64,000 bases of DNA. Source: Psammoneis japonica. Its lineage: Eukaryota. Under the pieces are notes generated by a model. The model saw nothing but the letters and a program-made list of their open reading frames with translations, did not search any database and was not told where the DNA came from. The stretch is from positions 496,001 to 560,000 of the forward strand of contig QPGO01000013.1 in the NCBI GenBank assembly GCA_008632985.1, given 5' to 3'. This document shows, piece after piece, positions 735 through 51,466 of this stretch. Position 1 is the stretch's first letter. The number at the start of each line of letters is the position of its first letter. The position numbers and the translations under genes are program-made.

Positions 735-1579
735 GTGTGTAATACAGTTTTGAAGTTTAGAACGAGCGGAAGAGAGGCCTATTGTATAGATATGTCGAGA
801 CGCTGGACGCGACGGTAGAAGGAGCCTCCTTTTTCGTGTGTACGAGTCGAAATAAATCTCTATAGACTTTTTGGTCGTTTTCGTGAAACACATCATGGCT
901 TTTGCTCTCATCATATATCGTAGTCTATGAACGAATCGCCCGGAACTCTTTCATGTCGCTTTATGATCACGGCTTGGTGTTATGGCCACTCGGGTGCCAC
1001 CGTCTTATACCGTTGTTGTTGTTTTTTTCATCGGCACACCGCCATCGTCATACCGTACATGCATGGTCTTTTCACTTCTTCTGTTCAGTCGAGTCCAACC
1101 AAAGACAGACACGGACACCAAAAAAGTATCTTTCTTTTACACAGACAAATAGACTGTCTGTCGATCGTTCCACTGCTGTCCATCCCAGAGGTTCCACATC
1201 CCCGGAGCTCTCAGCTTTGTTGCTGTCGGCAAAAAGAAAAGAGAGTCATTGTTTTTGGTGGAATTGTTGCTCACCAACCAGCACCAAGACCATCATTCCA
1301 AGGGAACAACTCAGCCAAACAACGGCAGTTGCCGATGTGCTGGCAGCGCTTTTTTTTTGTCAAGAGGGGGGTGCCGCTTCCGTTGTGGAGAATGCGTGCC
1401 ATGTGTTGCCATTTTCTCTGAGTTTTTTGTTGCATGAAATGCCATGCTAAAAGTGATGTGGGGAAGCGACACAAGAAACACACACAAAAAGTGTGGCAGG
1501 GTGGGTGGTGGTTTTGAACCAGCCTCTTTGCAGCTTGCCAATGTGCACAAGGCTTTGCGCAAGCTGCAGGAGGATTTTG

Positions 1580-1930
1580 TTTGCAAGCTGGTTGCAAAAC
1601 TTGTTTGCAAACAAGTGTTTGTGAAATTTCAAGGGCCTCATGTTCATCATGAGACCCCACAAATGCAGAGGGACCCTCCTGCAGAGCTCTGCGCGAATTT
1701 TTGCATGTGGCACTGAAACATGTAGCCTGCATGCGCAAAACTGGCACAGTTTCTATGACAAAAATCCGAAAAAACACCTGGTTCGCGAGACAGCTCTGGC
1801 ACAAAACCTGCGTGAACAGTCCCCATGCATTCAGGCAGAACTCTGCACATTTCCGGGTTGCGGGTCCCTCCGAATTTGTGGGGTCCCATGATGAATGTGG
1901 CTGCAAACTCGCTTGCAAACTGGTTGCAAA
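1580..1930. repeat. Imperfect inverted repeat (possible MITE or TIR remnant)
   Basis: TTCATCATGAGACCCCACAAATGCAGAGGGACCC (~1643-1676) is the near reverse complement of GGGTCCCTCCGAATTTGTGGGGTCCCATGATGAA (~1862-1895). TTGCAAAC-type motifs flank both arms. Confidence 0.6.
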
Positions 1931-4900
1931 CTGAAGAGCTGAAACAGCTTGCAGCTCAGTCAGTGTGCATGAATCGCGGGCATGGCATGATGGTGAGGAG
2001 ACACCCCCCACTTCTTGCCAAGAGAGGTCCTTGCCTCTCTTGCTTCTTGCTGCAGCACTGCAATGAGGTTTCACTTGCTTTCAACTGTGCTGCACTGGCG
2101 TCATTCAAACAATGTGCAGCAAAAAGAGCTCACAAATGTGGTGGCAGAATGTGGCCATTTTGTGCTCTTCATTCTGCAAACTGGTTTGCAAGCTGCAAAG
2201 CAGCTTGTTGGAAGAATCTTTGCAAGCTGCAAAGGCCAGTTTGAACTCCACACTGCAGCTGCGGGGCAGCTCTGTCATTTTTCTCTGCACCAACCTGCTG
2301 CGGGAGGTGGCCTCAAATGTGCCAGCAACCAATTTCTCAATGGAGGGTTCTTCTGCAACCCTCTCCACTCTTGTCATGGGCTGTCTGCTCAGGCAGAGTG
2401 GTCATGAGCACAGTGGAGATGGCTTGCGCAGCTCTTGCAAATCTCCAGCTCCTGCTTTTGTTGGCCCTTTCTCTTGAAGCCTCCTGCTTTGGCATCCCAA
2501 GATCTTCATTTCTGTCTGGCTCTGCCATCAGTGCTGCAGCTGGGGCACTGGGGATGCCCCCCCCATCATTCATGCCTGGATTGCAAGTTCATGGCACGTG
2601 CCTTCTCCCCCCACTGAAACACAACTCTTTGTTCTGTTTGCAGGTGACAGCATTTCTGCACTGGGAAAAGACAGCTTTCAGCTGTTCTTCTGGAGCTTGC
2701 AAGAACCATGCTGTCAGATTTGTCATCATCATCTTGTGCTCTGCCAGCAGCAGTTTCCTGGGGATGAGTCTCCAATCCAGAGGCTCTGATCCAGAGGATC
2801 CTGCTGATCCTGATGTCCCTCCATTGCACAACACGTGCACCATGCTCCTCCTCTCTGATGAGGATTTTTGCCCCACCTCCTGTGTGTGTGTGTGCTCACC
2901 CGCCATTGTGCCAGCAGGGTCCTGCTTGTTTTTGCATCTCTGCACAGACAGAGTGCAGGGTCTGCTGACTTTGTCAGCTGGGAAGCAAGGGTCACACAAA
3001 AGGAGCATGCCAAAAAATGGTGCCTTCTTTTGACAAAGCCTCCAATGGCATCTGCTTTGATGCAGCTGAGGAGAGGCCATGTGAATTGCTCTCAAGAAGT
3101 GCCCCCTTTCTGGAACATCTGTTGCAATTTTGTTGTGAAGCAGGACACTGACAACAAAGCAATGGAAGGAAGGCCCCAAGTGCTGCAGAGCCCTGCCCTC
3201 TCATGTCTGCAATTTTGCCAAGGCTTTGCAGATGATCTGGCTGTGGAGCCAGCACCTCATGACAAGCCTGCTGGAACTTGTCTCTCCAACCAAATCCAGA
3301 AGATGTTGGTCTTCTTGCACGCTTCTGCCAGAGGCACCCAGCAGCCTTTCTGCTGCACAATGCCTCCTGGCGGCAATGTCTGCTTTCTGGACAAGGCAGG
3401 TGGCAGCCTGCATTTGTTTGCAGGCAGCCAAGAGATTGCAGATGGCAAGTGAGGTCAATGCAGGTCCAACCACAAGGAATCACATCAGATTTCTGCTTTT
3501 GTCTTTTGAGTTGCTTGTGCAGAGCTGGCAGCATTTGTGTTGTTCCAAGAGGTGCAGAGCTGCTCATGTGCTCCTTGTTCTCAAAAGAGAAGAGCTTGGC
3601 TCACATGCTCCTCATCCAGAACAAGAAGAGAGCGCAGAAAAAGCTGCAGACAGAGGGGCACAATGGGAGCATGATTGCTGCTTCTTTGGCAACAACATCA
3701 ACACAGGCACAGCTTTTCTCCTGGTGGCCGTGTTTGTTGGCTGTTCTGTGCACTGTGACTGGCGGGAAAGTTGAGCCCTGAAAATCAGCAAGGGATTCTT
3801 GCTGCTTTTGCACAGGAATGAATGTCACTGGCTGCAGTCATTGTGGTGGCATTTGCTGTTTTTGTGTGGCTGAGTGACTGTTGAGTCATGCTCAATGATG
3901 AGTGAAAAAGCAAAAGCTCAGCAAATGACTGTAGCTTGCACCCAGAAACATGACTTGCTGTTGTGTCTGCAATTTTTGCAGTGACACATTTTGTTTTCAT
4001 GGTTGAGTGTGTGCTTGGCTGCACTCAATGGGCACAAAAGTAAAACTCAGTGAGGGTTTGTCTTGCCTGTGTTCAGGAACACATGTGTTGCAGCACAATC
4101 TTCAAACCAACACATTTTGTTTTTGCAGTGTCAAGCAAGTGTTCAATCATGCTCAAGAGATGCACAACAAAAGATTGTGATGCACAGATGTGGTCATGTT
4201 GTGCACTGCTGGATTGCACCTGCCAGAGACAGCTTTGTGAAAAGACAATGCAAGTTCTTAGAAGCAGAGGCTTTTGTGTGTGCAAAGCAAGACAGCAGAT
4301 CAACTTTGCACTTGCTGCATTTTGTTCAATGACGCGGTGGTTGCAGCCAAGTGGTGGGAGCAGAAGGAACAAAACATGGGCAGGGAGGGGCATGTGCATG
4401 CTTGGTTTGCAGATGAGAGCACATTTGCTCTCTGGTGCTGGCTGGGCAAATTAGAAAAATTTGGCCAACAGCAGCTTTGTCTGAGGGTTTCTGCTTTGGT
4501 GGAGCCTGCTTGAGCTTCTGTGAGTGCACCAGCATTGATGCATCCAAGAAGCTGGAGGATGACAGCAGCCCATTGCATGTGGGTGGTTGGCAAGCTCATG
4601 GTGCCAGGAGTGTTGGCACCAGCAAAGTGCTCAGCTGTGGGACACAGGGAAAATCACACTGCGGTGGCCTGTGGCTCAAAACCAGGGTTGGAGCAAGGGG
4701 CAGATCAACAAATGTGGCAAGGAGCTGCTCAGATGAGTGCACAGCCACCAGGCTGCACAAACAGCACTGACATCTGGTTGATGCCAGCAAAAAATGCCTT
4801 GTCGCTCATGCAAGCTTCCTGCAGTGGAAAGTGTTTCAAGCAAAAACACACACCACATGTGCACAGCTGATGCTCACTCTGCTCAGCATCTGCTTGGGCA

Positions 4901-6977
4901 CAGCAGATGCACTGGCACAATTGTGTGTTGCTGGCTGCAAGCAAAGCCGCACTGCAGCAGGGGTTGTGCATTCTCAACTGCCTCCCAAAGTCATGCCAAG
5001 TGTGTGCCAAGACTTTGTGCACAAAGCTTTGCATCATGCAGCACTTGCTGAGTGCCAAAATGAGCTTGATGTGAGCCCTTTCTTGTTTTCGTGGACAGAC
5101 AACTTCATGCACACATGTGTGAGGTGCAAGCATGCAACTCAACTCATGTGGTTGAAAATTTTAAGCTTGCAGCAAAATGGCCTGCTGACTCAGAAATGGG
5201 CTCACAGTTCTCATCAACAGCAATTTTTGCAGCTGGTGTCTTTGTGCTCATCAACAAATTTGGTGGGCAGGGCACTGTGACATCACTCCTGCAAGTGTGC
5301 AGAGAAACCCTGCCAACTGCCAAAATCAACAGTGCCACTGCCCAGCAACAGTGCTTGCCAAGCTGCCTGCAACTGTGACTCCACCCTTGGAGTGAGAAAA
5401 AAAGCTTGCCAAGTTCATGGCCAAATTCAGCCAAATGATGCAGAGTGGCTGTGACCCTCAAAACAAAGACCTGCAAGGAGCAAGTGCAGTCCTTGGGCAA
5501 AATCCACACCAGAGTGTGCACACCCAGCTGTGACCAGGAACATGTTGTTTTCAATCACTCTCAGCTCAGGGCACAGAGCTGGGTGAAGATGGCCCATGGA
5601 GTGGCACACTCTCAGCAGCAGCTGGTGCCGAGCGGAGATGCCATGTTGAGCACTGCATGCCACACCAAGCAAAAATGTGCCCAGGACAGAAAGCAGGCTT
5701 GTCTGGCTGAACAACAAATGAGAGAACTCCAAGCTCAAAGAGTGCCAGCACACCACACAAGGCTGTTGGCACTTGTGTCAAACAGGGGTGAAAGACCAAA
5801 CATGAAGCTGACACTGTCATGCAGACCCTGCCAGGCTTTTCTGCACAGCTGCACATGCAAGACAATGCACTGACAAATTGAGCCCTGTCAATGGCAAGAT
5901 GTCTGGCACTCTGTGGCCATTGTCATGGGGGAGCAAGCTGTGGCATGCACTGCACTGATCACTGACAGATGCCAGCAAACATCTTTTGATGCAAGCTTTC
6001 TGCAGCAGAAACAAAGACACATCACATGTGTGTTTGCATTGCATGTGAGCACATCACCTGCAGCCAGCAGTGCTCATTCTGCTTGGTGCAAATGCGTGTT
6101 GGTGCAATTGTGTGCAAGCCATGAGTGAGCCCACACTGTGCAAGATTGAAGCTGCACCAACTGCACATCTTTCAGTGCTTGCTGTGTCCCAAAATGAACT
6201 TTGAGTGGTGAGACCATTCTCCATTTGTGGATCATGGAGAAGCTCATGAGCACAGGCAAAGCAAGTGCACAGTTCATGCCCTGGTGGCTCAACATTTCCC
6301 AGTGCAAACTGTGCTGAGAAGTGGCCTCACACAGCCACCACCAACAGCAATCTTTGCACCCCTGCCATCTGTGTGTGAGCTCAGTGCACAAGGCAGCAGC
6401 TTCAAAGGAGAACAGCAAAGAAAAGGAAGTGAGGGGTGACACAGCAAAGAAGCAAGAGGAGGGCTGGGGTGGCAGCCGCAAGAAGCACACTCTTGATGAT
6501 TGTGCAAATGCAGCTGGGTCACATGGCTGCAACACAATTTGGGGTGATGCAGCACCCAAAAGGCTGGGAAGGAGGGCACATTTGAGCTTTGCACTGTGGC
6601 TGAGATGCAGCAGCAACAGGGCTGTGGTGCTCCATGTGGGAGTGGAGCTGCAGCAGCAAACAGCAAATCAAGCAAAGCTGCTCTTTTGAGCAACAAACAC
6701 AGAGCACACTTGAGTGCTGCCTTGCTTTCCCAGCTTCTGGCAAGAAGTTGCTTGTTGGTTCTTGTCCAAAACATTTTGGAGAAAAGCCAACATTTTTGTT
6801 TTCAAAGTTTCCAGCCACAGCACTCAGAGCTGCAAAACCTGTTGTTTTTCATCATTTGAAGAAGCTCCCAGCTCCTGTCAGACAGGCAGACCTCAATCAG
6901 GGAGGTCCTGCCTGCCCAGATGTGGCTGGCAAAAAAAGAAAAGAGCAGGGTGTTGGATGTCATTTCCAAAGCTCTGA

Positions 6978-7230
6978 GTGTTGGAGTTTCATGGCTTGTC
7001 AGCCAGTGTGCACTCAGTCTTGCCAACCCCGAACCCACCTCGTGGCTCACAAGCACATTCCGAGTGGTGCCGTCAACTGCTGTTGCCATGTTGGCTGGGT
7101 GCAAAAGCCAAAAAGTGAGCACAAGACCCACAACTTGATCTGAGTTGTGAACAGAAATTTGCTGCATTGTCCACAATTGTCAGCACATCTTCTGCTGTGA
7201 CTTTGTCCATCTGTCCTGTGAAAGCCACCT
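6978..7230 (-). repeat. Diverged repeat copy A of a degenerate coding sequence (copy B at ~10095-10450)
   Basis: Shares TTGGAGTTTCATGGCT, CTCAGTCTTGCCAACCCC and AAGTGAGCACAAGACCCACAACT with copy B. Minus-strand translations align (IKLWVLCSLF vs IELWVLCSLL). Confidence 0.75.
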
Positions 7231-10094
7231 CCAGTGCCAATGTTCCAACACACTCCTTCACACAAAGAGCCGTCAATTGAAAAATGCCATGTGCACATCA
7301 AGCACAGGAGGATGACACTTGGACTCCATGCCACCCAATGCCACATTGGCTGTTCCACCAATTCCTGTGGTCCACATCATCCAACTCTGCCAATGAACAA
7401 TCATTTTCAAGGTGGTTCTTCCTCACATGTCCAACTTTGTTTCATTTCCAGCATCCAATCTGCTTCTTCTCTTTCTTTTCAAAACTTGTGCCATCAGGTT
7501 TCTTCTTGGTCCCACAGGTGTCCAACACCTGCAGTGCCTCCTTGGCTGAATCATGGGTGCACAAGCAAACAGCTGCGCAGGCCCAATTGACATCAGATCA
7601 GTTGCCAGCTGCCCCCCTCTTTCCAGTGCAGCTGCACATTGGCAGCAGGGGCTTCAAGTTTTTGCATGCTAAATTTTGCAGTTCAGAGCATTTTGGAATT
7701 TTGGATTTTTCTGAACACCACAACACACAACAACACTTGAACAACAAGCATCAATGCTGCCATCAACGGGACAATGGAACAGATGCAGGCACCATCGGAG
7801 CTGCTTCATTTTGTCAGTGAACTCATTGCAGTGCAATGGCACCTTGCACCCAGGCTGCAACCAATGACACAAAAAAGAAGGCAAAGAAGGCCTGCATTTG
7901 CAGCTGGGGCGACAAGTGCAATGCAACACATTCCATGTGCTTGGCATCCAACAAGCACAACATGACCTGCCTTGTGAAAATTGTGGAGAGATGAGAACAG
8001 TCCACTGCAATGTTGCACTGAAAATCACTTCAACTTGAGCAGAGATTGCAGGAAAAAGCACAAAGTGTTGGCTCATCACTGCCTGCCAGAGCTTGCAGGA
8101 AGCTGAGGAAGGAGCAAACCAGTTGATTGAAGACAGGGTCTCAAAAGACTTTCTTTGCTCTCATGCATGGAAGCAGCTTCACAATGGAGAAGACAGCAAA
8201 GCAGTGACTGCTGACAACTCCACCCATGATCAGGATGAGAGTGTGTCTGTCCCTGAGATTGTTGACAGCACGGTCAACAAAACATCAGTGCACCACACAT
8301 TTCTGGCAGGGCCCTGCCTTGTGGCAACACAGGGCACAGCAAAGGCTGGGTTTTGTTGCAACCTGTGTGTTTCAAGATCACTTGGCTGCACATTGTTAAA
8401 ATTTGCCATCTTTGAATCTGTCATCTGAGCTCAATTTTGCAAATCATGCAGTTCCTCCTCCACAAGCCACCATGTGCTGCTTGTTCTGTCCAGAATCCCC
8501 TGTTTAACTGCCGCTCCACAGGCCCACTTTCTGACAGCTCCACAAGAATGAAGTTGGTGGCAACAATGTGATGCAAGCATTGGCTGCAACACAAAGGACA
8601 CCACAGAAAAGAGATGATTGGAAAAACATCCACATGAGTGTCAGCCACTCAATGTGGATGCAGCCAATTGTGGTGATCTCTTTTCAACCATCAATCAACT
8701 GAATTCACACAAAGCAATTGTCCCCCATGACGAACCAGAAAGTCTGATCACAACAACCCAAAAGAGACCTTGTGAGGTGTGTGATCACTCATGATGGTCC
8801 ACAGCACAAGGTGCAAGGTGCTCTTTTTGTCCAACATCATCACATGCTCCTCCAGAAGATGCGTGTGATGCTCCTCACAAACACAGCCATTGTGCAACAT
8901 TGTGGAGGGATTGTTTGAGCAGCTGTGGACTCACTTTCTTGATGGGTTCTTGAGAGGTTGCCAACAACTCCTTCCCCTCCTCCTGCCAAGCATCTTCTGA
9001 CTGAGCAACTTTGGCTTAGAGTGTTTCTCCAAAAAGAAGAAAGCATGGATTTGAGGCTCTGAGTGTGTGACACAAAAGGCTTGCTGAGCTTGAGCATTGC
9101 ATTGACATGAGTGGCAGATCAAGCTAAAGCTGATGAGAACAAGAGGAGCAAGACAAGAAAGCAGACACACGCCATTGCAACATGCCTTGCAATGCATGGG
9201 CAGCACCAACAACACCAACAGATGATGATTTTTGAAAAGATGCAACAAGGTGCAAGGTGCAGATTTGGATCCATGGGTTGAAAAAGCCCCCCCCCTCCCC
9301 TCAAAATTTAGCACACAGCAAGTTGAAGACTCCGCAGATGCTGTGGGATTGCACTGCAAGTGGGAGGCTGGCCAGCAACCAATGTGATGCTGATTGAACA
9401 TGGCCCATCTGTCCTGTTGTCAATTGTGCACCCATGGGCTGAATTGGTGCAAATGTCACCCCCCAGTGTGAACTGGCAATGCAGGTGACATTCCAACATT
9501 CCTTGGCACCTTCCACTGGCATCACTGCTGACAGCTGGCTCCTTTCTTTGTTCTGGGTGTCATTGGCATCTTTGCTGAACCCATCTTCTTTCCAGTCAAT
9601 TTCTTCTGTGATCATGATCCTGCCATGGGACATTTCTGCCGCTTCAACTGCACTCACAAACTGACCAAAACAATCTTGAAGCACTGCTCCTTTGTCTTGA
9701 CAAATGAGTGCCAACTGTTTCCAAACTTTGACTGCCTGGATGTGTGGGTTTGTCTTCTAATTTGCATCAAACAAAATTGACTTGAGAACATCCACCAGTG
9801 CTGCCATGTCCCACTCCTTCATGACTCTTGCAAACTTTGCTGCTGGTCCTTCAATTTTTTGATGAACAGCCTTCACACATGATTGTCCCACAATTGTGTT
9901 GAATGACCTCACCTTCTCACCTGCATCTCTGGCCCAAACATTCTTCCAACACACACTTGCCAATCTTCCTCATGGTTTTGATGCAACCATCTGCTTGTCA
10001 CCCCAACTCAGCAATGGTGTCACACACACACTCCTTTAGATCTTCCGTGCTTCCATGCTCAGCTGTGTCCTTGCCCACATTTTTGGGAACTTGT

Positions 10095-10450
10095 GTTGGA
10101 GTTTCATGGCTTGCAGACAGCTGTGCGCTCAGTCTTGCCAACCCCAACACAACCTCACTGTGTGCCCTCTTTCAGCAGACCCTTTTTGGCTTCTGTGTTG
10201 GAGCTTCATGGCTCACCAGCAACAAGTGCATGTTCAGCCTTGCCAACCCCAAACTCGCTGTGTGGCTTGCAAACATGTTCCTCAATGCTGTTGTCTGTTG
10301 CTGCAATGTCAGCCAGGTGCAGAAGCTGAGAAGTGAGCACAAGACCCACAACTCAATCCCAGCTGTGAAGGTAAATTCACCACACAGTCCACAATCATTG
10401 GCGCATCTTCCGCCGCAGCTTTGTCTGTCTGCCCTGTCAAAACCATCTCT
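10095..10450 (-). repeat. Diverged repeat copy B, with a short internal duplication of one end
   Basis: Aligns to 6978-7230. The TTGGAG.TTCATGGCT...CTTGCCAACCCC block occurs twice (~10096 and ~10198). Confidence 0.75.
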
Positions 10451-13400
10451 CTGACCACAATGTTCCATCACTGAGACTCTCTCTGATGCTCTTGCAGAGC
10501 AGCTCCATGTGCAACAAAATGAGCAGTGCAGTGGATCTGCTTGGCTGCTTTCAAGCATTTTGCAAAAGTCAAATCCAGTGCAGCCAGATCTGCTTCTGCA
10601 CATTTGAGCCACTTGAGTCATTTTAGTCTGTCATCAGCATCCTTGAATGGCATCACTGCAAATCTCATCAGCACACCAGCTTGTCTTCAGGAGGGGAGGT
10701 TCTCCATGGTGCAAAAATGAGACCACATTTTGGACCCTCATTGTGCCAAATTTTTTGATGACTGCTCATGTCAGTCAGCTTTTTCACAAGCCATCACATG
10801 CACCATCTTCATTTCTGAGCAGAAAAACATGTGCAGTGTTTCCTTTTCCAAGACCCCTCACACAGCACAGTTTTTTCAGGTGCTCTGCTGCCTTTTTTTG
10901 AAGCATGCAATGCCTCACCTCAGAGCAGCACACCAACACAATGGCACTCCTCAGCTTCTTCCTGGAGTTGGCTTTTTTGGTGGACCCACTCAAATTCTCT
11001 GGAAAATCTTTAGGAGTTGAGCTCACTCTCCTCTCAGGCGCCCCTGCCAGCATTGGTGAAAGGGGCATGTTGTGTGGGGAGACATCGGCACTTCTCAGAG
11101 TTTCCGCCATCAGTGCCAGACAACAGCACAGCCTCTGGTTGCCACATGACTCTTGTTTGTTGGAGCTGGTGCCAAGAATGAGGGATGATGACATCACAAC
11201 CTTTTGGCACAACATTTGCAGCCAGCTGACATCATCAGCAAAGTGTGAGAGGGCTGCTCTCCTTTCACATGCTGGTGCATCTCCCCCTGATGCTCAGCTT
11301 TGCACTGCTGTTCTCTTGGCAGAGCCTCCGCCTCCCATCAATCCTCAAAATTGTTGTGCCTGCTGTTCATCAAAACAGTTGGACAAATGTCCAAACCAGT
11401 TGCTCTGCCTCAGCCACCAGCATCATCTGTTTGTCACATTTGACGGCCGGCTCTGTTTGTTTGTTCAAGAGAGAGAGAGAAAGAGAGAGAGACATCTGAG
11501 ACACTCCACTTCTTGTGAAAAGCTGGAAATTTTCCAGTTGTTGGGGGAGCTGCCCAGAACACGTGCACATGAGAAATTCACAGGCACGCTGTCACCCAGA
11601 GGTGTGGCATGAATGACAGACAGGGAAATGCAGCAGAAGTGGGCCATGCAGGCAAGAAACCAATGGGTTTTGGGCAGGGAGCAGGCAGCAAGTTGGGTGT
11701 GTGGTTTCACAGAGCACTGGATGAGTTGATTGGCAAGAAGGGACTTGATGATGACCAGGTTGAGGCTCTGAAGGTCCCATTGCACCAGAGCAGCAGTGCC
11801 AGCAGGAGAGGCCAAAATGGGCTGATGCAGTGTTGGACCAGGTGGCTGTTGCAGCGGGGAACATGCCTCCTCACAGAGAGAGTTGAGCACTGGTGTGGGT
11901 GGTGCAGGCAGATGGATGAAGAAAGGAAGATTCCAAAGTCCAGGTTGGGGCAGGGTGGTCTCAGTTGGCTCCAAAAAGGAGACAGTGAGCAAAGCAGCCA
12001 GGCATGGCAAAAGGGACCAGATGCCCGTGCACTCACAGAGGAGATGACAGTCTTGCTGTGTTGTGTCATTTGTGAGTGCCATGGAGTTTCTGCTTGGTGC
12101 TTGCATGGTTTCCCTTGGTGAAAGGGTTGCGCCAGGGGGTGGGCAAGCCAGGAGCTGAAAGAGGAGGTGGCTTGGGAACCACAACATGGATTGCAAGGCA
12201 AGTGTGGCAGAGAGGGGATGCAGCAGATGAAGCAGGAGTGAGCTTGACACCCACATTGGCTGGGCAGAATGAGGTTGGTGGGCTCATGGTGGACAGCAGA
12301 AAGGAATTTCTGCAGGTGCCCAACATGGGACAGGGGGGCAACAGTTTGCAAGATGGCAGAGGTGCCATTGTAGATGGCACATTGGAAATGGTGGTCTTGT
12401 GTCCCACAAGGAGTGGCGGCAGAAAGCATGATTGCTGCATGGGCCAGCATTGCCATTGCAAGAGGGTGGGCACATGAAATTGCATCGTGTTGGAGGAGAT
12501 GGGCAGATGAAGCTTTTGATGCAACACAAGGCAAAAAACATCAGGCATTGGGATGGAAGGGACAAAGCAAGGAAGTGGAGAGAGGGCAGAGCCATGGCAA
12601 CATGTGGCAGGCTGTGATGCTGCTGGTGGTCAAGCTGTCAAAGGAAGTGAACATGGTGGCGGCAGAGGGCATGCAACAAATTCTTGAGTGAAGTGGCTTT
12701 GACCAAGGCAGATGGAGAGGGAGGCAGAGGGTTGGGGGAGGGAAGAATTGTGGCTCCACAGTGGCGGAAGACTTGGCACAAACAATGCAGTGATTGGTGG
12801 CAGGCTGCCCAGGTGGTGTGCAGGGAGCATGCAAAGAGGGGGGTGGGGGGTGGGGGGGGTGGCAAGCCCTTGTGTGGCCCATGGCAAAAGGAGCGGGAGT
12901 GGTGCTGGCAGCAATGGATTGGTGCCCTGTTCCACCAGCTGTGGCTGGAACATGTGACAGGAGAATCAGCATGGAGGAAGGGAGCATGGCGAGGTGGCAA
13001 GGTGCATGGAGATGTGCATCACAGCACTGCTGTGCCATGTCTTGGAACAAAGGGATCCTCCAGAAAGCTCAAAGAAAGCAGCAGTGGCTGGCAGCAATCT
13101 CTGCAGATTGGGTTGGGTGACCTGCTGTTGGGTGGAGGAAAGACAGAGTTTGTTGTGGGGTGGCGGTGCTGAGCTCTGGCAAGTGCAGAAGGGGGGAGCT
13201 GGTGATGGAGAGGCAAGGACAGCATTCTTGTCTGGGCTGAAGCAAATGCAGCAATGGAGATGGCTGAGGGCAGTCAACCAATCAAGAAACCATGTGCACT
13301 GTGCTCAAAGAACGAGCACAAACAAAAGTGGAGTCAAGTGTGAAAAGTGAAAATTATGAGATTAAATTTTGCTCTATGATTTTTGGTTTCTCCGAACGAG

Positions 13401-13663
13401 TTCTCAATGGCCTAAAGCTTCTGTGCTGCTTCCACAGACAAAAGGCCTTTCGGAGAACATGTTCGTGACAACAGATTGTCCGGATGCGATTGCTGTTGAC
13501 ACGTGAGATGTCAACATCGTCAATCAATCGCATTTGCAATTTTCGACATCCGATCAACTCTGTGTGATCGTTCTGTCCTTTGCACGCATCCACGACTGTG
13601 GTGCGATTGACACATGAACAATGTGTGATTGTGAACATGCACACAACAGTTGCATGCTGCACA

Positions 13664-13846
13664 NNNNNNNNNNNNNNNNNNNNNNNNNNNNNNNNNNNNN
13701 NNNNNNNNNNNNNNNNNNNNNNNNNNNNNNNNNNNNNNNNNNNNNNNNNNNNNNNNNNNNNNNNNNNNNNNNNNNNNNNNNNNNNNNNNNNNNNNNNNNN
13801 NNNNNNNNNNNNNNNNNNNNNNNNNNNNNNNNNNNNNNNNNNNNNN
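13664..13846. other. Assembly gap (183 N)
   Basis: Run of N. Confidence 0.99.
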
Positions 13847-13849
13847 CCC

Positions 13850-14160
13850 CCCTCCCCCCAAACACTTGTGAGTGTGTCTGCCCCCCAGTTTCAAGTTGTC
13901 AGATTTGGCACAGCAGTTGTCAAATTCAACAAACTGCTGTTTTTTGACAAAATTGCACTGCTTGTGGCAGACAAGCCACAACTTTCCAGAAAATGTTGGC
14001 AACAATTGGTGTTTGATTGGCTGACAAGCCAAACAATGCTTGTGGTTGCAAGCACTGTGTGCATGCCCTGTGCTGCTGTCTTGCAAGTCAACAAAGTTTG
14101 ACCTGACCCAATGCTGAATTTTTTTGGCAAACCCAAGCATTTGAAATGATGCGTGCAATC
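13850..14160 (-). repeat. Hypermutated copy of a non-coding repeat also found at ~42262-42566
   Basis: Reverse complement aligns with 42262-42566, e.g. TGGAAAGTTGTGGCTTGTCTGCCA vs TGGAAAGTTGCGGCTTGTCTACCA. Both end in CACAAGTGTTTGGGGG. Confidence 0.8.
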
Positions 14161-16423
14161 TTTGCAAAGCTCACAAAAAAAGACCTCCACTCATTGACCC
14201 ACTTTTTCAGCTCCATTTTGCACAAAAAAAGGCTCCTGTTCTAAGATCAGTTTCTTCTGAATGCACACAGCACAGTGCAAGCAATCATGCACCCCACAAA
14301 AAAGAGAAGCACACATCACTTTGTCTTTTTGAAGCCATCATCACGCTTTGTCATTCATTGTCCAAACCACAATCTCTGTTGGCACTCTGAGCTGCACTGA
14401 ACAATGAGACAGGTGTGGCATGTGTTCCACCCATCATTTGCCTGTCAGGTCTCATGCAAAACAAGTGCTCCAACTCAGGCTTTCTGCCAGGTTCATGCAA
14501 GCACAAGTTCTGGCAGTTGAAGACCTTTGAGATGCACTCCTGTTGGATCTGGTTGAGACAATCATTTGTCTGTGGACAGTTTGAGGCATGCTCTTGGAGA
14601 AGTGACCAAGGGCTGGCAAGAATCAACCCATGAAAAGGCAGCAAATGTTGTTGTTTTGACCCATCAACAAGAGATGCTCTGAAAGACAAGGAGCTTGATC
14701 CAATCCCATCTGTGAGCAGCGATTTCTTGCAAGCTGCTGACTGTGGTGCTGGTGAGGACACTTGCCAATTGAGTGCAAAAAGCTCATGCTAGAGAGAGAG
14801 TGCACCTGGTTGACAACTTTTTCAGCTTGGGTGGTTTGATCATTGGAGCTTTGCAAGCAGGCATCACATGGTGAGCAGTCATTCTGTCAAACAATTGGCA
14901 CATGGTTGTTCCAGAGAAAGATTGGCAGCAGCACCAGCAGCAGCAGCAGCTGCAGGTTTTAGCAGCTTGTTGCCAGCAGCTTGTTGCAAAAACAAGTGCT
15001 CTGCACAAGCAGCCATTCCAAAAAATGACTGGTGGCAGCAGCGCCAGCAGCTTTGGTGTTGTGTCAGCAATGGGTGGTGGTGGCAGCAGCAATGTTGACA
15101 TCAGCAGTTTCATTGTCTTGCTGCAAACAAGTGCTGCACAAGTGGCTCTCCCAAATTTGTCAAAGCATCATCATCAGAAGCAGTTTTTAATGTCTTGCAC
15201 TGCAAACAAGTGCTGCAAAAGCAGCTGCACCAAACAATGGCAGCTTCAGCAGTTTTGACATCTTTTGGGCTCTTCTTAGAAATCTGTGTGTGTGGCTTGT
15301 CTGGAGCACCATTTGGCCACAAAGCCTGCGTCAAAGAAGCAAAGCACTCAGGCAACTCTTTTTGTTTTGCAAAATGTGTTGAGCCAGGTTGTCAAGAAAC
15401 AACCCATGTGGCAACCTCTTCATTTGTGAACTTCCGAAAATTTGACACTTGACAAGTGGCATTTCCATCTTGTGTTCCCAGCTTTCGTGGCACTTCTTTG
15501 CCTTTCCTGAGTGTGCTTCACAAGAAAAATGAAAAGCAACAGTGGCTGGGTGCATTGTGGACAAGTGGCCCAAGTTTGGCAGCAAACTGACGGCACTGAC
15601 ATCTTCTTCTCAGATGCCCTTGCTCTGCCATGAGGACTTTGTTTGGCCTTTTTGTCTTGTGTCTTGAGGTGCTTTGCATTGCCTCCTTTTTGCCCCACCT
15701 GAAAGACACAAAAAGCAATGGATCATGAGCACACTGACAACACACAGCAGCACAGATGCACGGCGCAACTCTTCATGCACTGATCATTCTCCAAAGCACA
15801 GCGCACCATTTGCGCAAACATTTGTTGTGCACCCAAACTTTGGCACACAAGGAACATGGGGTGAAAGAGAGTTGGCAGATGGAACACCTCCATTGAGCTC
15901 ACTGGCCTGGATCATCTAAAGATGCCATTGTTGCCATGTGTTGCAAGTGCGGCGCATTTTTTGGCAGAAAATCATGAGCCACATTGGCCAAATTCGAGCA
16001 AAAAAAGCAGCAACAGGCCACCCTCACTGGCACTTGAAGAACAAAACCCAAACGAACCTTCACTGTGATGTGCCTCACCGGCACAGTGCACGGACTCTAG
16101 GTAACGCACACTGTAGACTGCTCTCTCTAGAGTAGAGGGGCCCTGCAGCACTGTGGGCACCGGTGGAATCATCAGCCACACCCAACAACCAGATTTTCAA
16201 ACTCATTTATCGAAAAAATTAGCCCAGTACATTTTTCCACGCACACTTGCGTGTTGCGAAGCCACGCAAATCTTTAGCATTCATTTTCCTTCATCCATGA
16301 GGCTTTTTATTTGATAGAGAAGGCGCGTGGACCACACAAACGTCAGTGAACGATCAAATCGCAATCGCATTTTTTCCAAAGCGAGATCTTTCGCACAATT
16401 CGTCGACACTGTCTATTATTACA

Positions 16424-17741
<1,318 letters not shown>

Positions 17742-24445: not shown

Positions 24446-25475
24446 GAGATCTTTCTTTATTTGCAGCAATGTGCTGGAGTATGCCTCTGCCAAGGAAAAT
24501 CTACTAGCAGCTTTATTATGCGCTCCCTATCGCCTCTTTCAACGATGCGTTCCCCAAACAAAAAACCCCGACACTTTCCAGATACAGATTACAGTCTCGC
24601 CACAAACTTAATTGTTTCATATACCAACAAATCAACAACAGTGGGTTTTTTACTCTTGCTGTAAGTATCTTTTTCGAAAGTTTTTCTGTCGGCACAAATC
24701 GTGGACGTCGTGTTGTCAGTTGAGCGTGATGAAAATGACGTGATCGTGAGAGCGGCTTCAACCTTGGATTTCACGTACAAGTCGTACTGAGATTGTGCGT
24801 AGGGTGGAAGATCTATTTCTACGTCAGCCTCCGTATTGTTTGCTGTAGATGGTAAGAAAGATCCAAGAATCTTTGAATTTTAATCTTCATCAATGGATAA
24901 AGTGTTTCCAAAGGCATCTTCTCACCCCGCCTTTGGTCTAGCCGCATTGTCAGGATTAGTGTATAGGGCCTACCCTTTACCAGCTCATGTGTTTCGAGAT
25001 CTAGTTGAACTTTTAAGGTTAATCTTTGATGAGAGAAACACTCATTGTTACAGTTTCGACGGTTGTTTGTTTCCATCTCCTTTGCTTGACCATGATGCTT
25101 TCAAGTCTAGAGTGGGACCAGCGAAGCTCATGCCCAGAGGATTGATGTGTTGGCTGGGAGTGAGCAGTAGGAGCTACAGAAAGCACATCACAAGTGCCAT
25201 ACGGTGCAGAAATCTAAGAGTGCAGCATGGCATAGAACTGACATTGCAACGACGATTCTTCGAATCGAACTCGGGTGGGGAGGCGGACAGTCGAATCGAG
25301 TCGTGCATCACGCACTCTACCACCCGCCCACTTTTTTTGATTTTTTGTCTTCAGCCCGGCCACATGCCACAACCACAACACACCGACAGCAAAAACACTC
25401 TTGACGCTGCTGTTCCAAGCAACATTATCCTTTCCGCAGTACCCCATCAAACGGCTCAGCTTCTTCCCTTCAAAC

Positions 25476-27578
25476 ATGTCTTTCAATCAAAGTGATTCTG
25501 ATGGTCGCTGGTTTTCGATTGACAACGAGAAGAGTGCGGATGAGCGGAACCTCGATGAAAGCCACGTGACGCACGAATCGAAAAGCCAGCTTTATTGTAA
25601 CCACAACGCCAACGATCCATCCAGTTACCACCATATAAATAGAAACGAACGTTTCGATACGAGTGGGGTACAAGGGGGGCTGCTTGATGGCCAATTTTCT
25701 CAGAATGACATAGTCACGAATGCCAGCGTTCCGAATGCCACGAATCAACATCCTCCCTACGTTCCGTCTGTTTCCTGCACCGAATGGTCACCTGAGTATC
25801 ATTATCCTTCCTTCCTGCATCACCAGTGGCCTTCTCCTCAAGAATACTATTATCCAAACTCCCAGTACCAACAGTACAACCATGAAAGTGGTTTGTACCA
25901 TGGCTTCACCATGCATGCAAACGTACCTGGAGGATATTACTATCCTTGGTACTATCAACCCTGTGGAGAGTACAACTCCGGTCCTGCCAGCATGACTGGA
26001 TATCAAGGAATGAATGGTCCTGGTTTTATGCCGTATGCCGGAGCGCCGACTCCATGGATGGCACCGCCAGAGGAAGCGGCCCATCAAACGTACGCCTATC
26101 CTGAAACTCCCGCTGAAGCCTCTCTTGAGCATGGCTACAGCTACAATTCTGTGCCTTATTACTACCCCTACTGGCACCAGCCGCTTCTGCAGCAGCAGCA
26201 GCAGCAGCAGCAGCAAAATCCAATCTGTTGCGCCCCGGATTACTACCGGTATGGCAATTTAACCGACCACTGTGGTCCCGGTACGATCCATCAGGACTAT
26301 CCCGCGGATGACCATGACGAGTCCGGCCTAACGTTGGATTTCGTCAGTGCTAAGGATAAGTCTCTCATCCCCGAGACAAAAGAGCATCTAACTCCAACCG
26401 AAGCAAAATCTCCCATTTGTACCGAAGCCTTCTCGGACAAAATCCTTCGCCCTGCCAAAGCCACTGCGGAATCATCCACAGGGCTTTTCCTTAATTCATC
26501 GCATCAAACGTTACTCGACCTTAACGAGGATGTTGTCATGCAGTCCCTGCAGTTTTTGGACCCGGTGGATCTTTCGCGGGCTGGATCTGCCTGCAGACAC
26601 CTGCGCAAGCTTGGGGAGAATGAGTGGCAAATGAGAGATTCAGACACAAGTGCCTCTTCTCGCTCTATGGCATCCACATGTCGCGAACGAGTAATTCGAT
26701 TCTTTCTGAGTGAGCAAAAAGCTTTCTCGATAGAGATGAACGGATCTACTGAAGTACAGCGTACCCATGCCGAAGAAATCATGGATGAGCCAACACGACA
26801 TGAATTCTTTGCTCGGTTTTCTTGTAAAGGTGATTCCAATCTCATTTGGCAGGGGTTCATTCCGCTACTCGATTCATTTGATTGGCCTTTAGTTGGGGAC
26901 GCTTCTTTCATCCTTGATTATATTCATCCGTTGCAAAATTTGGATCATCTTTTACAGCGAGAACACCAGAATGACGAGATAGCGCAAGAGGATTCAACAA
27001 CTAATGTGTTTGCTCACCTGAGCTTGGCGATTGTGGCTCTTCCTTACTCACTGTCCGAATCCATAATTCCGAAAGTCGTTTTTCACACTGAACCTGGCAG
27101 ATGCTGGCGCGAAACTGGTGCCGGTCAGCATCGTTGCACTCAAGACACTAATTCGTTCGAAGTTGATTGTTTTTTGTCGTCCCACCTCTGGAGGCCAGTG
27201 GAAGAACAGTCAGCGAGCATCAAAATGTTGTCTTTGTCCAAGTGGCCAAGTTTTAGGAGTGCCCTTGCTGACTTAGCGCAATATACTGCTACAGCGCGGT
27301 TTGTGCTACGTCCCCAAGCCGATCTGCAATGGGAAGAAAGCGCCGTGCAGAGGTTGCAGGGACTAGAGAGTGTAAACCGTCGTGTTTTGAATGTTCTATA
27401 CGAGTATGTAAGAAGGGATGCTACGATCAACGAGAAGAATCGAAGTGGAAGACGTCGATCTCAGCGTCAATTTAAAATGACATACGAACCCACGGAAAGA
27501 CGCTACAAGCCGAAAGGAGGAAGAATATATCCCAAAAGGCAACACGGTGGACACGGTCGACGATTCGGAGGTCGCTAG
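25476..27578 (+). CDS. F-box-like protein with a Tyr/Pro/Gln-rich low-complexity N-terminus
   Basis: ~700-aa ORF. LLDLNEDVVMQSLQFLDPVDLSRAGSACRHLR fits an F-box. PolyQ encoded by (CAG)8 at 26190-26213. Confidence 0.75.
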   Translation: MSFNQSDSDGRWFSIDNEKSADERNLDESHVTHESKSQLYCNHNANDPSSYHHINRNERFDTSGVQGGLLDGQFSQNDIVTNASVPNATNQHPPYVPSVSCTEWSPEYHYPSFLHHQWPSPQEYYYPNSQYQQYNHESGLYHGFTMHANVPGGYYYPWYYQPCGEYNSGPASMTGYQGMNGPGFMPYAGAPTPWMAPPEEAAHQTYAYPETPAEASLEHGYSYNSVPYYYPYWHQPLLQQQQQQQQQNPICCAPDYYRYGNLTDHCGPGTIHQDYPADDHDESGLTLDFVSAKDKSLIPETKEHLTPTEAKSPICTEAFSDKILRPAKATAESSTGLFLNSSHQTLLDLNEDVVMQSLQFLDPVDLSRAGSACRHLRKLGENEWQMRDSDTSASSRSMASTCRERVIRFFLSEQKAFSIEMNGSTEVQRTHAEEIMDEPTRHEFFARFSCKGDSNLIWQGFIPLLDSFDWPLVGDASFILDYIHPLQNLDHLLQREHQNDEIAQEDSTTNVFAHLSLAIVALPYSLSESIIPKVVFHTEPGRCWRETGAGQHRCTQDTNSFEVDCFLSSHLWRPVEEQSASIKMLSLSKWPSFRSALADLAQYTATARFVLRPQADLQWEESAVQRLQGLESVNRRVLNVLYEYVRRDATINEKNRSGRRRSQRQFKMTYEPTERRYKPKGGRIYPKRQHGGHGRRFGGR

Positions 27579-34407: not shown

Positions 34408-35453
34408 ATGTCTTCCTCTTCAGCTACTGTTACGTCATGTCTAAACATTCTAGATAGGGTACCACCCTGTGATATGGAGAAAGTAAGTACATAGTGATAC
34501 AAAACGTACGATACGAAAACTCAGAAAGATATGCCGATCTTTTTTATCTTATTTCAGCGTTTGTTGCCTCCCTACTTTTCTAGAACATTGAAGGCCTGTC
34601 GGTTCTGTTATCTACAAAAGAAACGACCGAGTTGAATCACGCGCTTCGTCATGTTGTTCCACTCAAAGTTGAAGAGGATCCCAAGGCCGAGGACAATCGC
34701 CCATTTCTTCTGTCGGAGTACAATCGAGTTGCAAACACAAATTCCTATCGCTCTCCGTGGACAAATACGATATATCAGCGCCCTTCCATGACGGAAGATA
34801 CAGGCTCGTCGTCTTCGTCTTTACCGCCACCGTTGGTTCGTGATCTAGAACAGCACGCCAATGAGGTGTGGAGTGTTTACACCGACATGTATTACGGAAA
34901 AGGCGCCGTCGGATCCGTGTATTTATGGCAAAAGGAACAAACGCTCATGGCGGGGTGCTTTCTCGTTCGCAATCAAGTTCAAAATGATGATGAACTGTCG
35001 GAATGGAACAGCCTTCATCTCGTCAATGTGACTCCACAACAGGACGGTGCAAAGGCCAAGTACGCTGTGAATTCGTCCGTATGGGTGGTTTTGCGCGACA
35101 AGCAAGATAACAGCTCGTCCACCATTTCTGGAGTCTTGCATCACAAGCCCGTGTCCAAGATTTGTGCATTTGATGCTGCTACACCTTCAAGTCATGTGGA
35201 GAACCTGGGTCCAATTATGGAATCCATTGACAGTGACTTGAGATCCAACATGCACTCTGTCTGTCTAGGCAAGACATTGCAAGTGGCTGAATCCATCCGA
35301 ACGACAACAGGTGGTGGGATTGTCAAGCCAACCAAGAAGAAGGTTTTAGGTGGGATCCCAATGGTTGGTTTGGGAGCTGGTGGAGCAGAGCATGCCGCCA
35401 TGTTGAATCAAGCCATTCTTGCACGTAAACTCAAAAAGACAGGGATCGAGTAG
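34408..35453 (+). CDS. CAPZB: F-actin capping protein beta subunit-like; exons 34408-34482 and 34584-35453 (intact copy)
   Basis: FLLSEYNR...SYRSPWTN, LEQHANEVWSVYTDMYYG..VGSVYLW and HVENLGPIME match CapZ-beta motifs. Phase-0 GTAAGT...TAG intron. Confidence 0.85.
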
Positions 35454-35601
35454 TGTCCTTTCTTCTAAAGAAGGGGATATAGTTTGGTATAGAATAACAC
35501 AGCAGTTATATTGGACAGATGGACATGTTGCACATGGATCACCATTGTTTTGTATCGTAATAACATTCATTATTCACTGAAGGTGCGTCAATTAAACCGT
35601 G

Positions 35602-36148
35602 CTACACACCAACACCGCAAAAGGTTCCACAACCAGAACGCTCATACGACCAGGCTTCCTCTTTCTTCCACTTTTTGAATTCCTCAAAAGATATTTTTCC
35701 ATCTCGGTTCGAAAAAATGGAATTAAACTCACGGATATTATGGAACGTGTCAATGTCAAGGTCGAGCTCGGAAATAATTGCCATGAACCCATCAATGTCA
35801 AGGAAACCGTCTTGGTCGTTGTCGAACTTGCGAAAGTCAATAAACAGAATGGCGTCATCCATTTTGTTGCGGCAAACGCCTTCAATCCTTCTAGCTGGAT
35901 TATGACCAACACAAAAGGCAAGCAACCCAACAACCATGAGGATGGATCCAGCAATGGTCGTCTCGAGGACAGGATGGCTTGCTTGAAGCAATCCCAACGA
36001 GAAAAGGAAAAGGCCGCGACCCCATCAAAATCACACAAAGCTCAAATGCTTGGTTGTAGAATGCCGTGCCAATGTTGAAAATGATTTTGGGTCAGGGCTC
36101 CAAAGCTCACATGCAGGTCAAGTCTAAGGCGCCCATGATCCAAGAAGC
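35602..36148 (-). pseudogene. 3' part of a duplicated EF-hand membrane protein gene
   Basis: Near-identical to 52286-52828. In-frame TGA at 36025-36027 where the intact copy has TTA (LLWGRG). Homology stops at ~36148. Confidence 0.85.
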
Positions 36149-40165: not shown

Positions 40166-40478
40166 GCATCGAATGTTTTATCTCAGTTTGAAGACAATGA
40201 GCGAGACACAGCCGCCGTTCAGCGAAGCGTCCAATCCAGCTGCCGGCACGTGACGAATCGCATGTGGTCTCTCAGCGAGAGTCTGTCAACCCATCCGGTG
40301 CGCGGTTCCCAAATATGACGGGAACGAACTTATTTTTTTTGCAACCACCGACCACCGCACTGCGAGGGGAACACCATGCACCATGCATCAACCATCACCA
40401 CCACCGCACCGAGAAGAACCATTGATCATACCGGTACGGTAGTTCTTTTCTATTTTTTATCCCAACTTTTCTTTAAGA

Positions 40479-42261: not shown

Positions 42262-42566
42262 TTCTTCGCACCAACAATGCGCGCGTTCGCCAAAAATGTT
42301 CAGCGATGGGTCAAACTTTGTCCGTTCGCAAGATGTCAAGGTTCGGGATCTCTAGAACAAGCCAGTCAAACGCCAATTATCGGCCTTTCCTGGAAAGTTG
42401 CGGCTTGTCTACCATGAACAGTCCGATTCTGGCGAAAAACAGCAGTTCGTCGAATTTGGCAACCGCACCCAATGCGACAATCGGCGTTTGAAGGTTGACA
42501 AGTGTGGTTCATGTCAAGGTCTGCCAGCCCTGATGGGGGCTGGACACACACACAAGTGTTTGGGGG
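42262..42566 (+). repeat. Largely unmutated copy of the repeat at 13850-14160
   Basis: Alignment by eye; retains CG and TA in its left part. Confidence 0.8.
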
Positions 42567-43429: not shown

Positions 43430-43439
43430 CACATTGCAC

Positions 43440-51300: not shown

Positions 51301-51466
51301 TGACCAAAAGCCACTGTGCCATGGACCTTGAATGGCAGCCATCAAAAACCACATGCTGATCCAATGCAAGCACTCACCATGCTGCACTCTCTCTCTCTCT
51401 TTGCACATCATTTGCATCAATCTGGGGAACAATTGTGCCCAACACAAACAACTTTGAAAAGAACAA

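Follow-up and report, generated by a model that had tools for sequence, protein, structure and literature searches.

What could remove the dinucleotide TpA from one block of DNA, leave the adjoining block alone and, in doing so, take account of the bases on either side, is the question raised by a 64-kb stretch of Psammoneis japonica DNA (assembly GCA_008632985.1, contig QPGO01000013.1, positions 496,001 to 560,000), referred to here as the window, which is the single main dataset. Its DNA depleted of TA and CG falls in four blocks that come to 33.1 kb, and the remaining 30.9 kb is treated as normal DNA. The blocks, none of which is assigned a strand, are given here with ratios of observed to expected counts (O/E) and with the share of surviving TA in the tetramer YTAR (Y, pyrimidine; R, purine).

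Domain 1, about 1201-16000: 30 TA in 14.8 kb, YTAR share 0.73; a mosaic of repeats and single-copy stretches
Domain 2, about 36101-40200: 15 TA (O/E 0.05), 27 CG (O/E 0.12), YTAR 8/15; begins within the right end of duplicate copy A (described below)
Domain 3, about 42401-52000: 53 TA, YTAR 38/53; ends within duplicate copy B and includes blocks that have lost TA and kept CG
Domain 4, about 59401-64000: 11 TA (O/E 0.03), 29 CG (O/E 0.12), YTAR 8/11; reaches the end of the window

Together the depleted blocks hold 109 TA (O/E 0.05) and 360 CG (O/E 0.19) with TG and CA enriched to an O/E of 1.8-1.9, compared with 1283 TA (O/E 0.60) and 1660 CG (O/E 0.96) in normal DNA; in positions 2001-13340 of domain 1 the TA O/E is 0.02 and the CG O/E 0.09. 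The borders are sharp: a TA at 1150 is followed by the next at 1448, one at 15917 by others at 16098, 16102 and 16114, and one at 51881 by one at 52109; two further borders lie at 40179/40314 and 59390/59479. The domains occupy intergenic space and end 200-700 bp short of open reading frames (ORFs). Base counts give a G+C of 0.485 in depleted and 0.472 in normal DNA, TG (3807) and CA (3716) are in overall balance in the depleted DNA, and, scaled for length, TG plus CA is up by about 2755 while TA plus CG is down by about 2684. The nearly equal G+C, the match of gain to loss, and the change of CG to TG or CA that runs alongside, in the direction from GC to AT, bear out the contention of an earlier note on this DNA that the process is motif-specific and not a GC-biased drift; that it would also be enzymatic, as the same note proposed, is a further step taken up below.

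That note had also held, from inspection by eye, that the loss spares some contexts and erases others. Positions 2000-16000 contain 27 TA, four of them within 13350-13660 (at 13355, 13363, 13375 and 13413), and of the other 23, 19 are YTAR (nine TTAG, five CTAA, four TTAA and one CTAG) with the remaining four being GTAR (3932, 4041, 10372 and 12371), so that both its count and every one of its example positions are correct. The bias that it saw elsewhere is present in domains 2-4, where the YTAR share is 0.53, 0.72 and 0.73, compared with 0.08, 0.17, 0.14 and 0.17 in the four normal segments. Pooled, YTAR accounts for 76 of 109 TA in depleted DNA versus 211 of 1283 in normal DNA (Fisher odds ratio 11.7, p=3e-31), and RTAY for 1 of 109 versus 418 of 1283. 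The flanking dinucleotides of the depleted DNA itself would lead to a YTAR share of 0.332 (binomial p=7e-15 against that observed), and the contrast persists when the normal DNA considered is that outside long ORFs (18% YTAR, 31% RTAY). It also persists when 300 bp is cut from every domain end (68/96). TTAY and RTAA, named earlier as the usual exceptions, do make up 24 of the 33 survivors that are not YTAR. Equal depletion of all 16 NTAN classes (N, any base) is rejected (deviance 226.6, 15 degrees of freedom); with reverse complements merged, the numbers of TA in depleted and in normal DNA are as follows.

TTAA: 40 depleted, 56 normal
CTAA and TTAG: 29 depleted, 100 normal
CTAG: 7 depleted, 55 normal
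GTAA and TTAC: 16 depleted, 156 normal
ATAA and TTAT: 8 depleted, 189 normal
CTAC and GTAG: 6 depleted, 175 normal
ATAG and CTAT: 2 depleted, 134 normal
GTAC: 1 depleted, 106 normal
ATAC and GTAT: 0 depleted, 209 normal
ATAT: 0 depleted, 103 normal

An excess of YTAR need not by itself mean that other contexts were destroyed faster, since survivors might have been re-created from TG or CA, or be held by selection or bound proteins. Some survivors do recur as TTTAATTAAAA-like palindromes (44520/44524, 45916/45920, 45951/45955 and 48887/48892), which might be functional or young insertions, and survivors lie in contexts of T-runs and A-runs. Yet re-creation from TG and CA sources would yield about 21% YTAR (1611 of 7518 tetramers) and not 70%, the bias stays at 71/104 once adjacent or duplicated sites are dropped, and the directly polarised changes described below, together with an effect outside TpA, obey the same rule for the 3′ base, so that this explanation is very improbable. 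The palindromes merit mention in their own right: recurrent TTTAATTAAA(A)-like sequences at 44520-44527, 45916-45923, 45951-45958 and 48887-48895 account for 8 of the 40 surviving TTAA, and could be mobile-element ends or target sites, or simply the most resistant context doubled.

The gradation among the classes is captured by a model with four parameters, in which each TA consists of two independent half-sites and survival is the product of a factor for the base 3′ of the A on each strand. It fits the 16 NTAN classes (deviance 9.5, 12 degrees of freedom, p=0.66) with survival factors of 0.83 for A, 0.33 for G, 0.10 for C and 0.04 for T. That fit bears out the note's reading of TAY>TGY and RTA>RCA as a single event on opposite strands. 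A model of balance between creation and destruction, in which TA is re-made from TG and CA, returns the identical order (1 : 4.5 : 18 : 46) with a worse fit (deviance 22.6). The next base along also matters, as TAAA has a survival of 0.44 versus 0.09-0.18 for TAAC, TAAG and TAAT, an effect partly confounded by the enrichment of CA and AA in depleted DNA. The rule is then a graded 3′-neighbor order, T > C > G > A, with an additional influence of the +2 base, rather than a switch between YTAR and everything else, and that the hierarchy acts strand by strand is highly probable. When the window's own normal DNA was mutated forward at the fitted rates and its 4-mer spectrum (136 classes) compared with that of depleted DNA, the correlation was 0.96 for half-site loss, 0.94 for context-free loss and 0.67 for unmutated DNA; for the 16 classes with central TG or CA it was 0.71 for half-site versus 0.41 for context-free loss. 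The data give no support to leakage of the process into genes, normal DNA having TAY commoner than TAR (TAT 738, TAC 752, TAG 519, TAA 557).

Direction comes from sequences present twice in the window, once inside a domain and once outside. A segmental duplication of 1.36 kb (1370 columns, 87.6% identity by self-BLAST) spans two domain borders in opposite senses: over one part copy B is depleted and copy A normal, and toward the far end the two exchange states. A second, smaller pair lies nearby. The sequences involved are these.

34584-35453: CAPZB gene; best protein match 37%, with none from Bigelowiella natans
34786-36148, plus strand: duplicate copy A, the intact 3′ part of CAPZB followed by a decaying fragment of an EF-hand/COPI_assoc gene; normal to about 36020; Pfam F_actin_cap_B 149.6 bits
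51468-52828, plus strand: duplicate copy B, hypermutated in its left part to about 52022 and otherwise normal; Pfam F_actin_cap_B 61.8 bits
52286-53404, minus strand: EF-hand/COPI_assoc gene kept at locus B, the reciprocal partner of the fragment at locus A
53234-53574, plus strand: normal, ancestor-like copy of 49426-49784 found by self-BLAST, which serves as polarizing reference
49426-49784, plus strand: hypermutated copy of 53234-53574 (self-BLAST, 71% identity)

Because copy A is the working CAPZB gene, it can stand in for the ancestor. Its 14 TA correspond in copy B to seven TG, four CA, one TA kept and two other changes; the 14 ancestral TA of the second pair (53234-53480 versus 49426-49690) became seven TG and four CA, with three otherwise changed and none kept. 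Over both pairs, therefore, 22 of 28 ancestral TA turned into TG or CA, five changed otherwise and one was kept, and context-dependent conversion of TpA to TpG or CpA can be regarded as practically certain. In 15 of those 22 the change is TAY>TGY or RTA>RCA, in accord with what the earlier note had called most changes. A CTAG is retained in both CAPZB copies (34846 and 51530), as it had reported, and the exception that it gave, CCTATC to CCCATC, is found (53406 to 49611). Its summary that YTAR survives is right in so far as this is the slowest class, though not as immunity: one of six ancestral YTAR was kept in the polarized pairs, and in the second pair all three CTAG changed. The fates of the two genes in the duplication are reciprocal, and at each of its loci the depleted domain stops where the working gene starts.

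The polarized pairs also allow the 3′ rule to be followed beyond TpA. Of adenines preceded by T, those that became G were 7/14 in TAT, 10/16 in TAC, 5/16 in TAG and 3/9 in TAA, and of those preceded by A, 7/26 in AAT, 7/26 in AAC, 1/28 in AAG and 0/29 in AAA. Before a pyrimidine, the 5′ base ranks as TAY 17/30, AAY 14/52, CAY 7/66 and GAY 6/59. Outside TpA, A>G changes befell 27 of 177 VAY versus 3 of 175 VAR (V, any base but T; p=3.6e-6), the one instance among 75 VAG being the AAG already mentioned (CAG 0/23, GAG 0/24), and a control stretch in which both copies are normal gave A>G counts of 8 for VAY and 6 for VAR. The motif is thus best written W-A-Y (W, A or T) with a 5′ T strongly preferred, and the 3′-pyrimidine rule extends beyond TpA. 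As to which strand of a TA is struck, YTAY sites gave TG seven times and CA twice, and RTAR sites gave CA once and TG once, so that 8 of 11 hits fell on the strand predicted, or 11 of 14 when a repeat at 1670-1894 (3/3), described below, is included (one-sided binomial p ~0.03). Along the duplicates TG and CA outcomes alternate as chance would have it (runs test, 17 runs versus 17.1 expected and 11 versus 8.2), with no sign of the long single-strand tracts that an edited RNA or cDNA intermediate would leave.

This last result bears on the possibility that double-stranded RNA, or RNA:DNA hybrids, from silent repeats underwent ADAR-like editing that was then fixed in DNA. ADAR ranks the 5′ neighbor of its target U > A > C > G, an order that the one found here (T >> A > C~G) resembles. 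There are further likenesses in the A>G change itself, in both strands of a duplex being affected, as with double-stranded RNA, and in the role that ADAR has against repeats and viruses. ADAR1 and ADAR2, however, have 5′UAG as hot spot (PMC10661471), so that the 3′ preference is opposite, with G slow and pyrimidines fast here. The known substrate is RNA and edits on it are strand-coordinated, and such clusters are absent; a path from edited RNA to DNA would also be required. The authors of a 2026 preprint on TpA hypermutation in the chlorarachniophyte alga Bigelowiella natans (Mettrop et al. 2026, bioRxiv 10.64898/2026.01.13.699255) do remark on the parallel of an upstream U. All told, an origin in RNA editing is improbable.

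A different reading of the same counts puts the chemistry on the thymine. Were the T of 5′-R-T-A to be modified (for instance to 5-hydroxymethyluracil or 5-formyluracil by a TET/JBP-type enzyme) and to mispair with G, T>C would follow with a 5′-purine rule, and since TAY>TGY and RTA>RCA are the same thing in a duplex, all counts fit equally. That 5-hydroxymethyluracil in dinoflagellates is concentrated at TpA and TpC, and that 5-formyluracil mispairs with G, add to its appeal. Oxidized thymines, though, are usually repaired and also yield transversions, and 22 of the 27 changed TA here are clean transitions; no report of such a modification in diatoms surfaced in literature searches, which were not aimed at it; and for B. 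natans adenine deamination is preferred by its authors, likewise without proof (Mettrop et al. 2026). A thymine-side origin is accordingly rated as unlikely, while having more to be said for it than RNA editing.

How is the process directed? The summed word depth of run X1, for which about 65 corresponds to single-copy DNA, flags repeats in domain 1 at 1335-2001, 5337-6003, 6671-8004, 9339-10672 and 12674-14007, with a depth of about 1150 at 6671-7337 and 9339-10672. Two of the repeated sequences need to be distinguished, neither being assigned a strand.

1670-1894: member of a repeat family, with CA or TG where other genomic copies still read TA
13341-13663: high-copy element, TA O/E 0.15 and CG O/E 0.99; X1 depth 30081 in the bin 13341-14007

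For the former, other X1 contigs (3-16 of them, carrying 47-74% of the depth) have the TA form at 1704, 1711, 1800, 1810, 1827, 1836 and 1845, where the ancestral contexts are, in order, GTAT, GTAC, GTAC, CTAC, ATAC, GTAG and CTAC; the differences between repeat copies were taken from 40 of 839 difference rows. The single-copy stretches of domain 1 are depleted equally with its repeats, and one target, copy B of CAPZB, is a host pseudogene. With a duplication severed by domain borders, TA retained in other copies of a repeat and single-copy DNA no less depleted, targeting would go by place or chromatin state and not by homology. The high-copy element adjoins a run of 183 N (13664-13846), and a further member or fragment of it lies on the opposite strand at 42360-42466. 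A 20-base pattern from the repeat near 13960 had no match among metagenome contigs.

Here the comparison with repeat-induced point mutation (RIP) of fungi is instructive. Both are dinucleotide-specific transition hypermutation that wrecks repeated or foreign DNA and leaves sharply bounded, skewed domains. RIP tracks the duplicated segment and strikes all copies, whereas each 1.36-kb duplicate is mutated only at the end that lies inside a depleted domain, and the other copies of 1670-1894 mostly keep TA. The C>T changes of RIP fall chiefly on CpA, which gives rise to new TpA and to AT-rich DNA (PMC2621366), while here TpA is destroyed, G+C is steady and CA is mostly kept. RIP is then a functional analogue and the chemical opposite.

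The same run speaks to whether the domains could be an artefact of sequencing or assembly, for example by miscalling of modified bases. On certain platforms a modified A may be read as G and a modified C as T, and it may be that the best DNA run and the assembly share a sample. Separate X1 contigs, nonetheless, match the TA-free DNA (record 2 over 1843-7124, 5282 letters with one difference; record 5 over 10048-13322 with three), an agreement that rules out consensus error and not, given the possibly shared sample, a library-wide one. X1 word depth is 63-75 in TA-free DNA versus 66-94 in genes, strand-specific miscalls would leave mixed TA, CG, TG and CA and not a TA O/E of 0.02, and the pseudogene copy shows ordinary extra divergence as well. 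No library artefact specific to TA and CG and limited to sharp domains is conceivable to us, and an artefact of any kind is rejected as the least credible of all the explanations weighed here.

The CG lost from the same domains has its own rules. Copy A's 30 CG became 12 TG and 10 CA in copy B, with five kept and three otherwise changed, and in deep blocks the CG O/E is 0.09-0.15. In the polarized pairs C>T changes are limited to CpG, and 46 of 50 CA are kept in that of CAPZB. The C of CCG changed in 0 of 14 cases versus 26 of 56 for TCG (7/20), ACG (11/22) and GCG (8/14) taken together, so that CCGN becomes CCAN; for the base after CG the data give no support to a rule (C 5/14, A 7/20, G 9/14, T 5/22). 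Besides the high-copy element at 13341-13663, which shows TA loss to come first, four blocks have lost TA and retained much of their CG.

1201-2000: TA O/E 0.06, CG O/E 0.47
42401-44000: TA O/E 0.07, CG O/E 0.60
46201-46600: TA O/E 0.12, CG O/E 0.90
47201-48000: TA O/E 0.04, CG O/E 0.56

No block with the reverse pattern, CG lost and TA kept, was seen in the window, and it follows that TA loss is faster or wider-reaching than CpG loss and separable from it. Decay of methylated CpG would be expected to give just such changes as the 22 of 30 CG that went to TG or CA in the CAPZB pseudogene copy, but it covers the CpG half only, the TpA half being separable and faster, and there is the CCG strand rule to be kept in mind. 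The part of domain 3 that has lost TA and kept CG contains a tandem array (43792-44187; 51-base spacing, six copies of a 111-nt unit with 65-100% identity), and an ORF across it has a weak, sub-threshold match to NDC10_II (18.5 bits).

The coexistence of the two losses invites the idea that one begets the other. Patch repair triggered by the T:G mismatches of methyl-CpG deamination could bring in a polymerase-eta-like enzyme that errs at WA, as in phase 2 of immunoglobulin hypermutation, and the mutated A being preceded by T or A, as in that motif, and CpG decay being present in the same domains are both as would be expected. That polymerase, though, gives many transversions, whereas TA changes here are mostly transitions (22/27), and TA-lost DNA retains CpG, both in the high-copy element (CG O/E 0.99) and at 42401-44000 (0.60). 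In B. natans, too, 230 of 231 hypermutations are A:T>G:C with no wave of C>T (Mettrop et al. 2026). We consider repair errors improbable, a shade more so than RNA editing.

The explanation of the whole that is modestly favored is locally targeted TpA hypermutation with an adenine deaminase as its agent. The four domains would be silent, gene-free diatom DNA in which local hypermutation turned nearly every TpA into TpG or CpA. The elementary event would be an A-to-G change on one strand, with both strands of each TA struck independently, at a rate per A set mainly by the 3′ base (T > C > G > A, roughly 17:12:6:1 under simple decay) and with added protection from an A at +2. TTAA would be longest-lived because it presents a slow half-site on both strands, and RTAY would be lost because both of its half-sites are fast. 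The 5′ base would count as well, T acting far more strongly than A and A more strongly than C or G, and A(A)Y sites would in consequence also drift to G, more slowly. The agent may be a polynucleotide adenine deaminase with DNA as its substrate, its product hypoxanthine being read as G; what directs it would be the locus or its chromatin state and not sequence homology, and CpG loss would be a second, slower process, most simply the deamination of methylated cytosine. That a dedicated deaminase carries out adenine deamination on DNA is given an even chance, and among individual causes a DNA adenine deaminase with a 5′-T-A-Y preference is the most likely. A role in defense is conceivable.

Much in this resembles what has been described in B. 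natans, where integrated giant virus and virophage sequences are subject to TpA hypermutation, mutation-accumulation lines had 230 of 231 mutations as A:T>G:C, all at TpA, at ~6e-7 per site per generation, and the genome has 124 clusters poor in TpA and rich in TpG plus CpA, with an ADAT2 homologue proposed as the enzyme (Mettrop et al. 2026). TpA to TpG or CpA transitions, local domains beside normally evolving DNA, depletion of TpA with enrichment of TpG plus CpA, many affected sequences that defy annotation, and adenine deamination as the proposed cause are common to both. The lineage here is, by contrast, that of diatoms. Erasure is near complete, with a TA O/E of 0.02-0.10 compared with a cluster cut-off of 0.43 and a value of 0.45 for the region of nucleocytoplasmic large DNA virus origin there, and CpG, which the main text of the preprint does not mention, is erased too. 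A weaker extension of A>G to AAY and other VAY sites was also seen here. Flanking context is not dealt with in that main text (the words context, flanking, trinucleotide and tetranucleotide do not occur), though the supplementary mutation list may hold it. Relics of viral or transposon proteins were not found here (0 of 225 ORFs by Pfam). A literature search found no earlier report of TpA hypermutation in diatoms.

The tRNA deaminases are natural candidates. The natural target A34 of TadA and ADAT2-ADAT3 follows U33, which matches the favored 5′ T here, a fast TAC is compatible with their anticodon motif, and some members deaminate both A and C in DNA. TAT is faster than TAC here, however, and we know of no anticodon context of that kind; moreover those enzymes prefer hairpin loops or single strands. 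Their anticodon motif is given as 5′ACG (PMC10661471). The amphioxus BjADAT2, on our account the only natural ADAT2 whose context on DNA has been measured, favors GAA when its target is A and TCG when it is C (PMC10354150).

Several considerations weigh against the proposed deaminase. In sequence alone, A>G on one strand looks just like T>C on its complement. The preferences of BjADAT2 are not those seen here, where GAA changed in 0 of 29 cases and TCG (7/20) did no better than ACG (11/22) or GCG (8/14), and the slowness of a 3′ G (TAG 0.33 versus TAC 0.10 and TAT 0.04) is unlike ADAR. The polarized set is small (28 TA), the second alignment being partly poor with flank identity of 7-10/16 at some sites, and the test of strand choice reaches only p ~0.03. 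What is termed survival is relative to neighboring genic DNA, which is not the true ancestor. The simulation under-predicts NTGC/GCAN, with CTGC/GCAG at 694 versus 467 predicted, GTGC/GCAC at 572 versus 429 and TTGC/GCAA at 716 versus 599, and this excess means that the spectrum also owes something to a factor outside the model.

The first report of TpA-specific hypermutation in silent DNA dates from 2026 and concerns a single alga; what is new here is a probable diatom case, with a quantitative context fingerprint that goes beyond the published main text. The same signature carried near to completion in a diatom suggests that many marine algae may have the process, among them a group for which genetic tools exist. 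The fingerprint (3′ T > C > G > A; 5′ T >> A > C~G; strands independent) is one that every candidate enzyme has to reproduce, and it argues against the known preferences of two obvious candidates, ADAR (UAG) and amphioxus ADAT2 (GAA). For base editing, a natural enzyme able to act on A within double-stranded DNA would be of interest. It is a tentative and rather doubtful suggestion that diatoms and chlorarachniophytes share a dedicated deaminase of adenine in double-stranded DNA, which reads 5′-T-A-Y on silenced chromatin on either strand and erases non-genic TpA; equally speculative, being part of the same suggestion, is that the shared system is the mirror image of fungal RIP, with G+C constant because of its pairing with CpG decay, and that the TAY>TAG>TAA hierarchy would be the fingerprint of a new natural editor of adenine in DNA. 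On the practical side, the hierarchy allows such domains to be better detected and supplies a rule for reconstructing their ancestry.

There is also a consequence for annotation. Lacking TAA and TAG stops, depleted DNA is crowded with long spurious ORFs on both strands, and gene finders would over-call in TA-free DNA. About 37 of the 114 ORFs of at least 130 aa sit in domain 1 (1201-16000), none with a Pfam match. Among 225 stop-to-stop ORFs of at least 75 aa wholly inside the domains Pfam gave no match at E<=0.001, and among 30 long ORFs in depleted DNA none was above threshold, the weak scores being NDC10_II at 18.5 bits and OrfA at 16.7 bits. An Rfam scan of the whole window had no matches.

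The normal DNA is compact and eukaryotic, and its Pfam-recognizable genes include those for a kinase, a SET-domain protein, an aldose epimerase and an EF-hand protein. The protein of 25341-27578 has no relative among metagenome contigs. The gene that places the DNA among diatoms is the following.

16599-17741: GAPDH gene; 93% identity with the Phaeodactylum tricornutum plastid GAPDH precursor, 91-92% with its counterparts from other pennate diatoms

Run X3, from a marine metatranscriptome and with a share of 0.06, maps only to this gene, with many differences, and is not evidence of habitat. Run X2, though listed as 'DNA?', behaves like RNA, seemingly of the same sample, in that one of its contigs skips 128 bases (467-596, GT..AG) at high depth, marking a spliceosomal intron in the window's leftmost gene. 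Its reads lie on the flanking genes and hardly at all on domain 1; a region that X2 leaves uncovered need not be silent.

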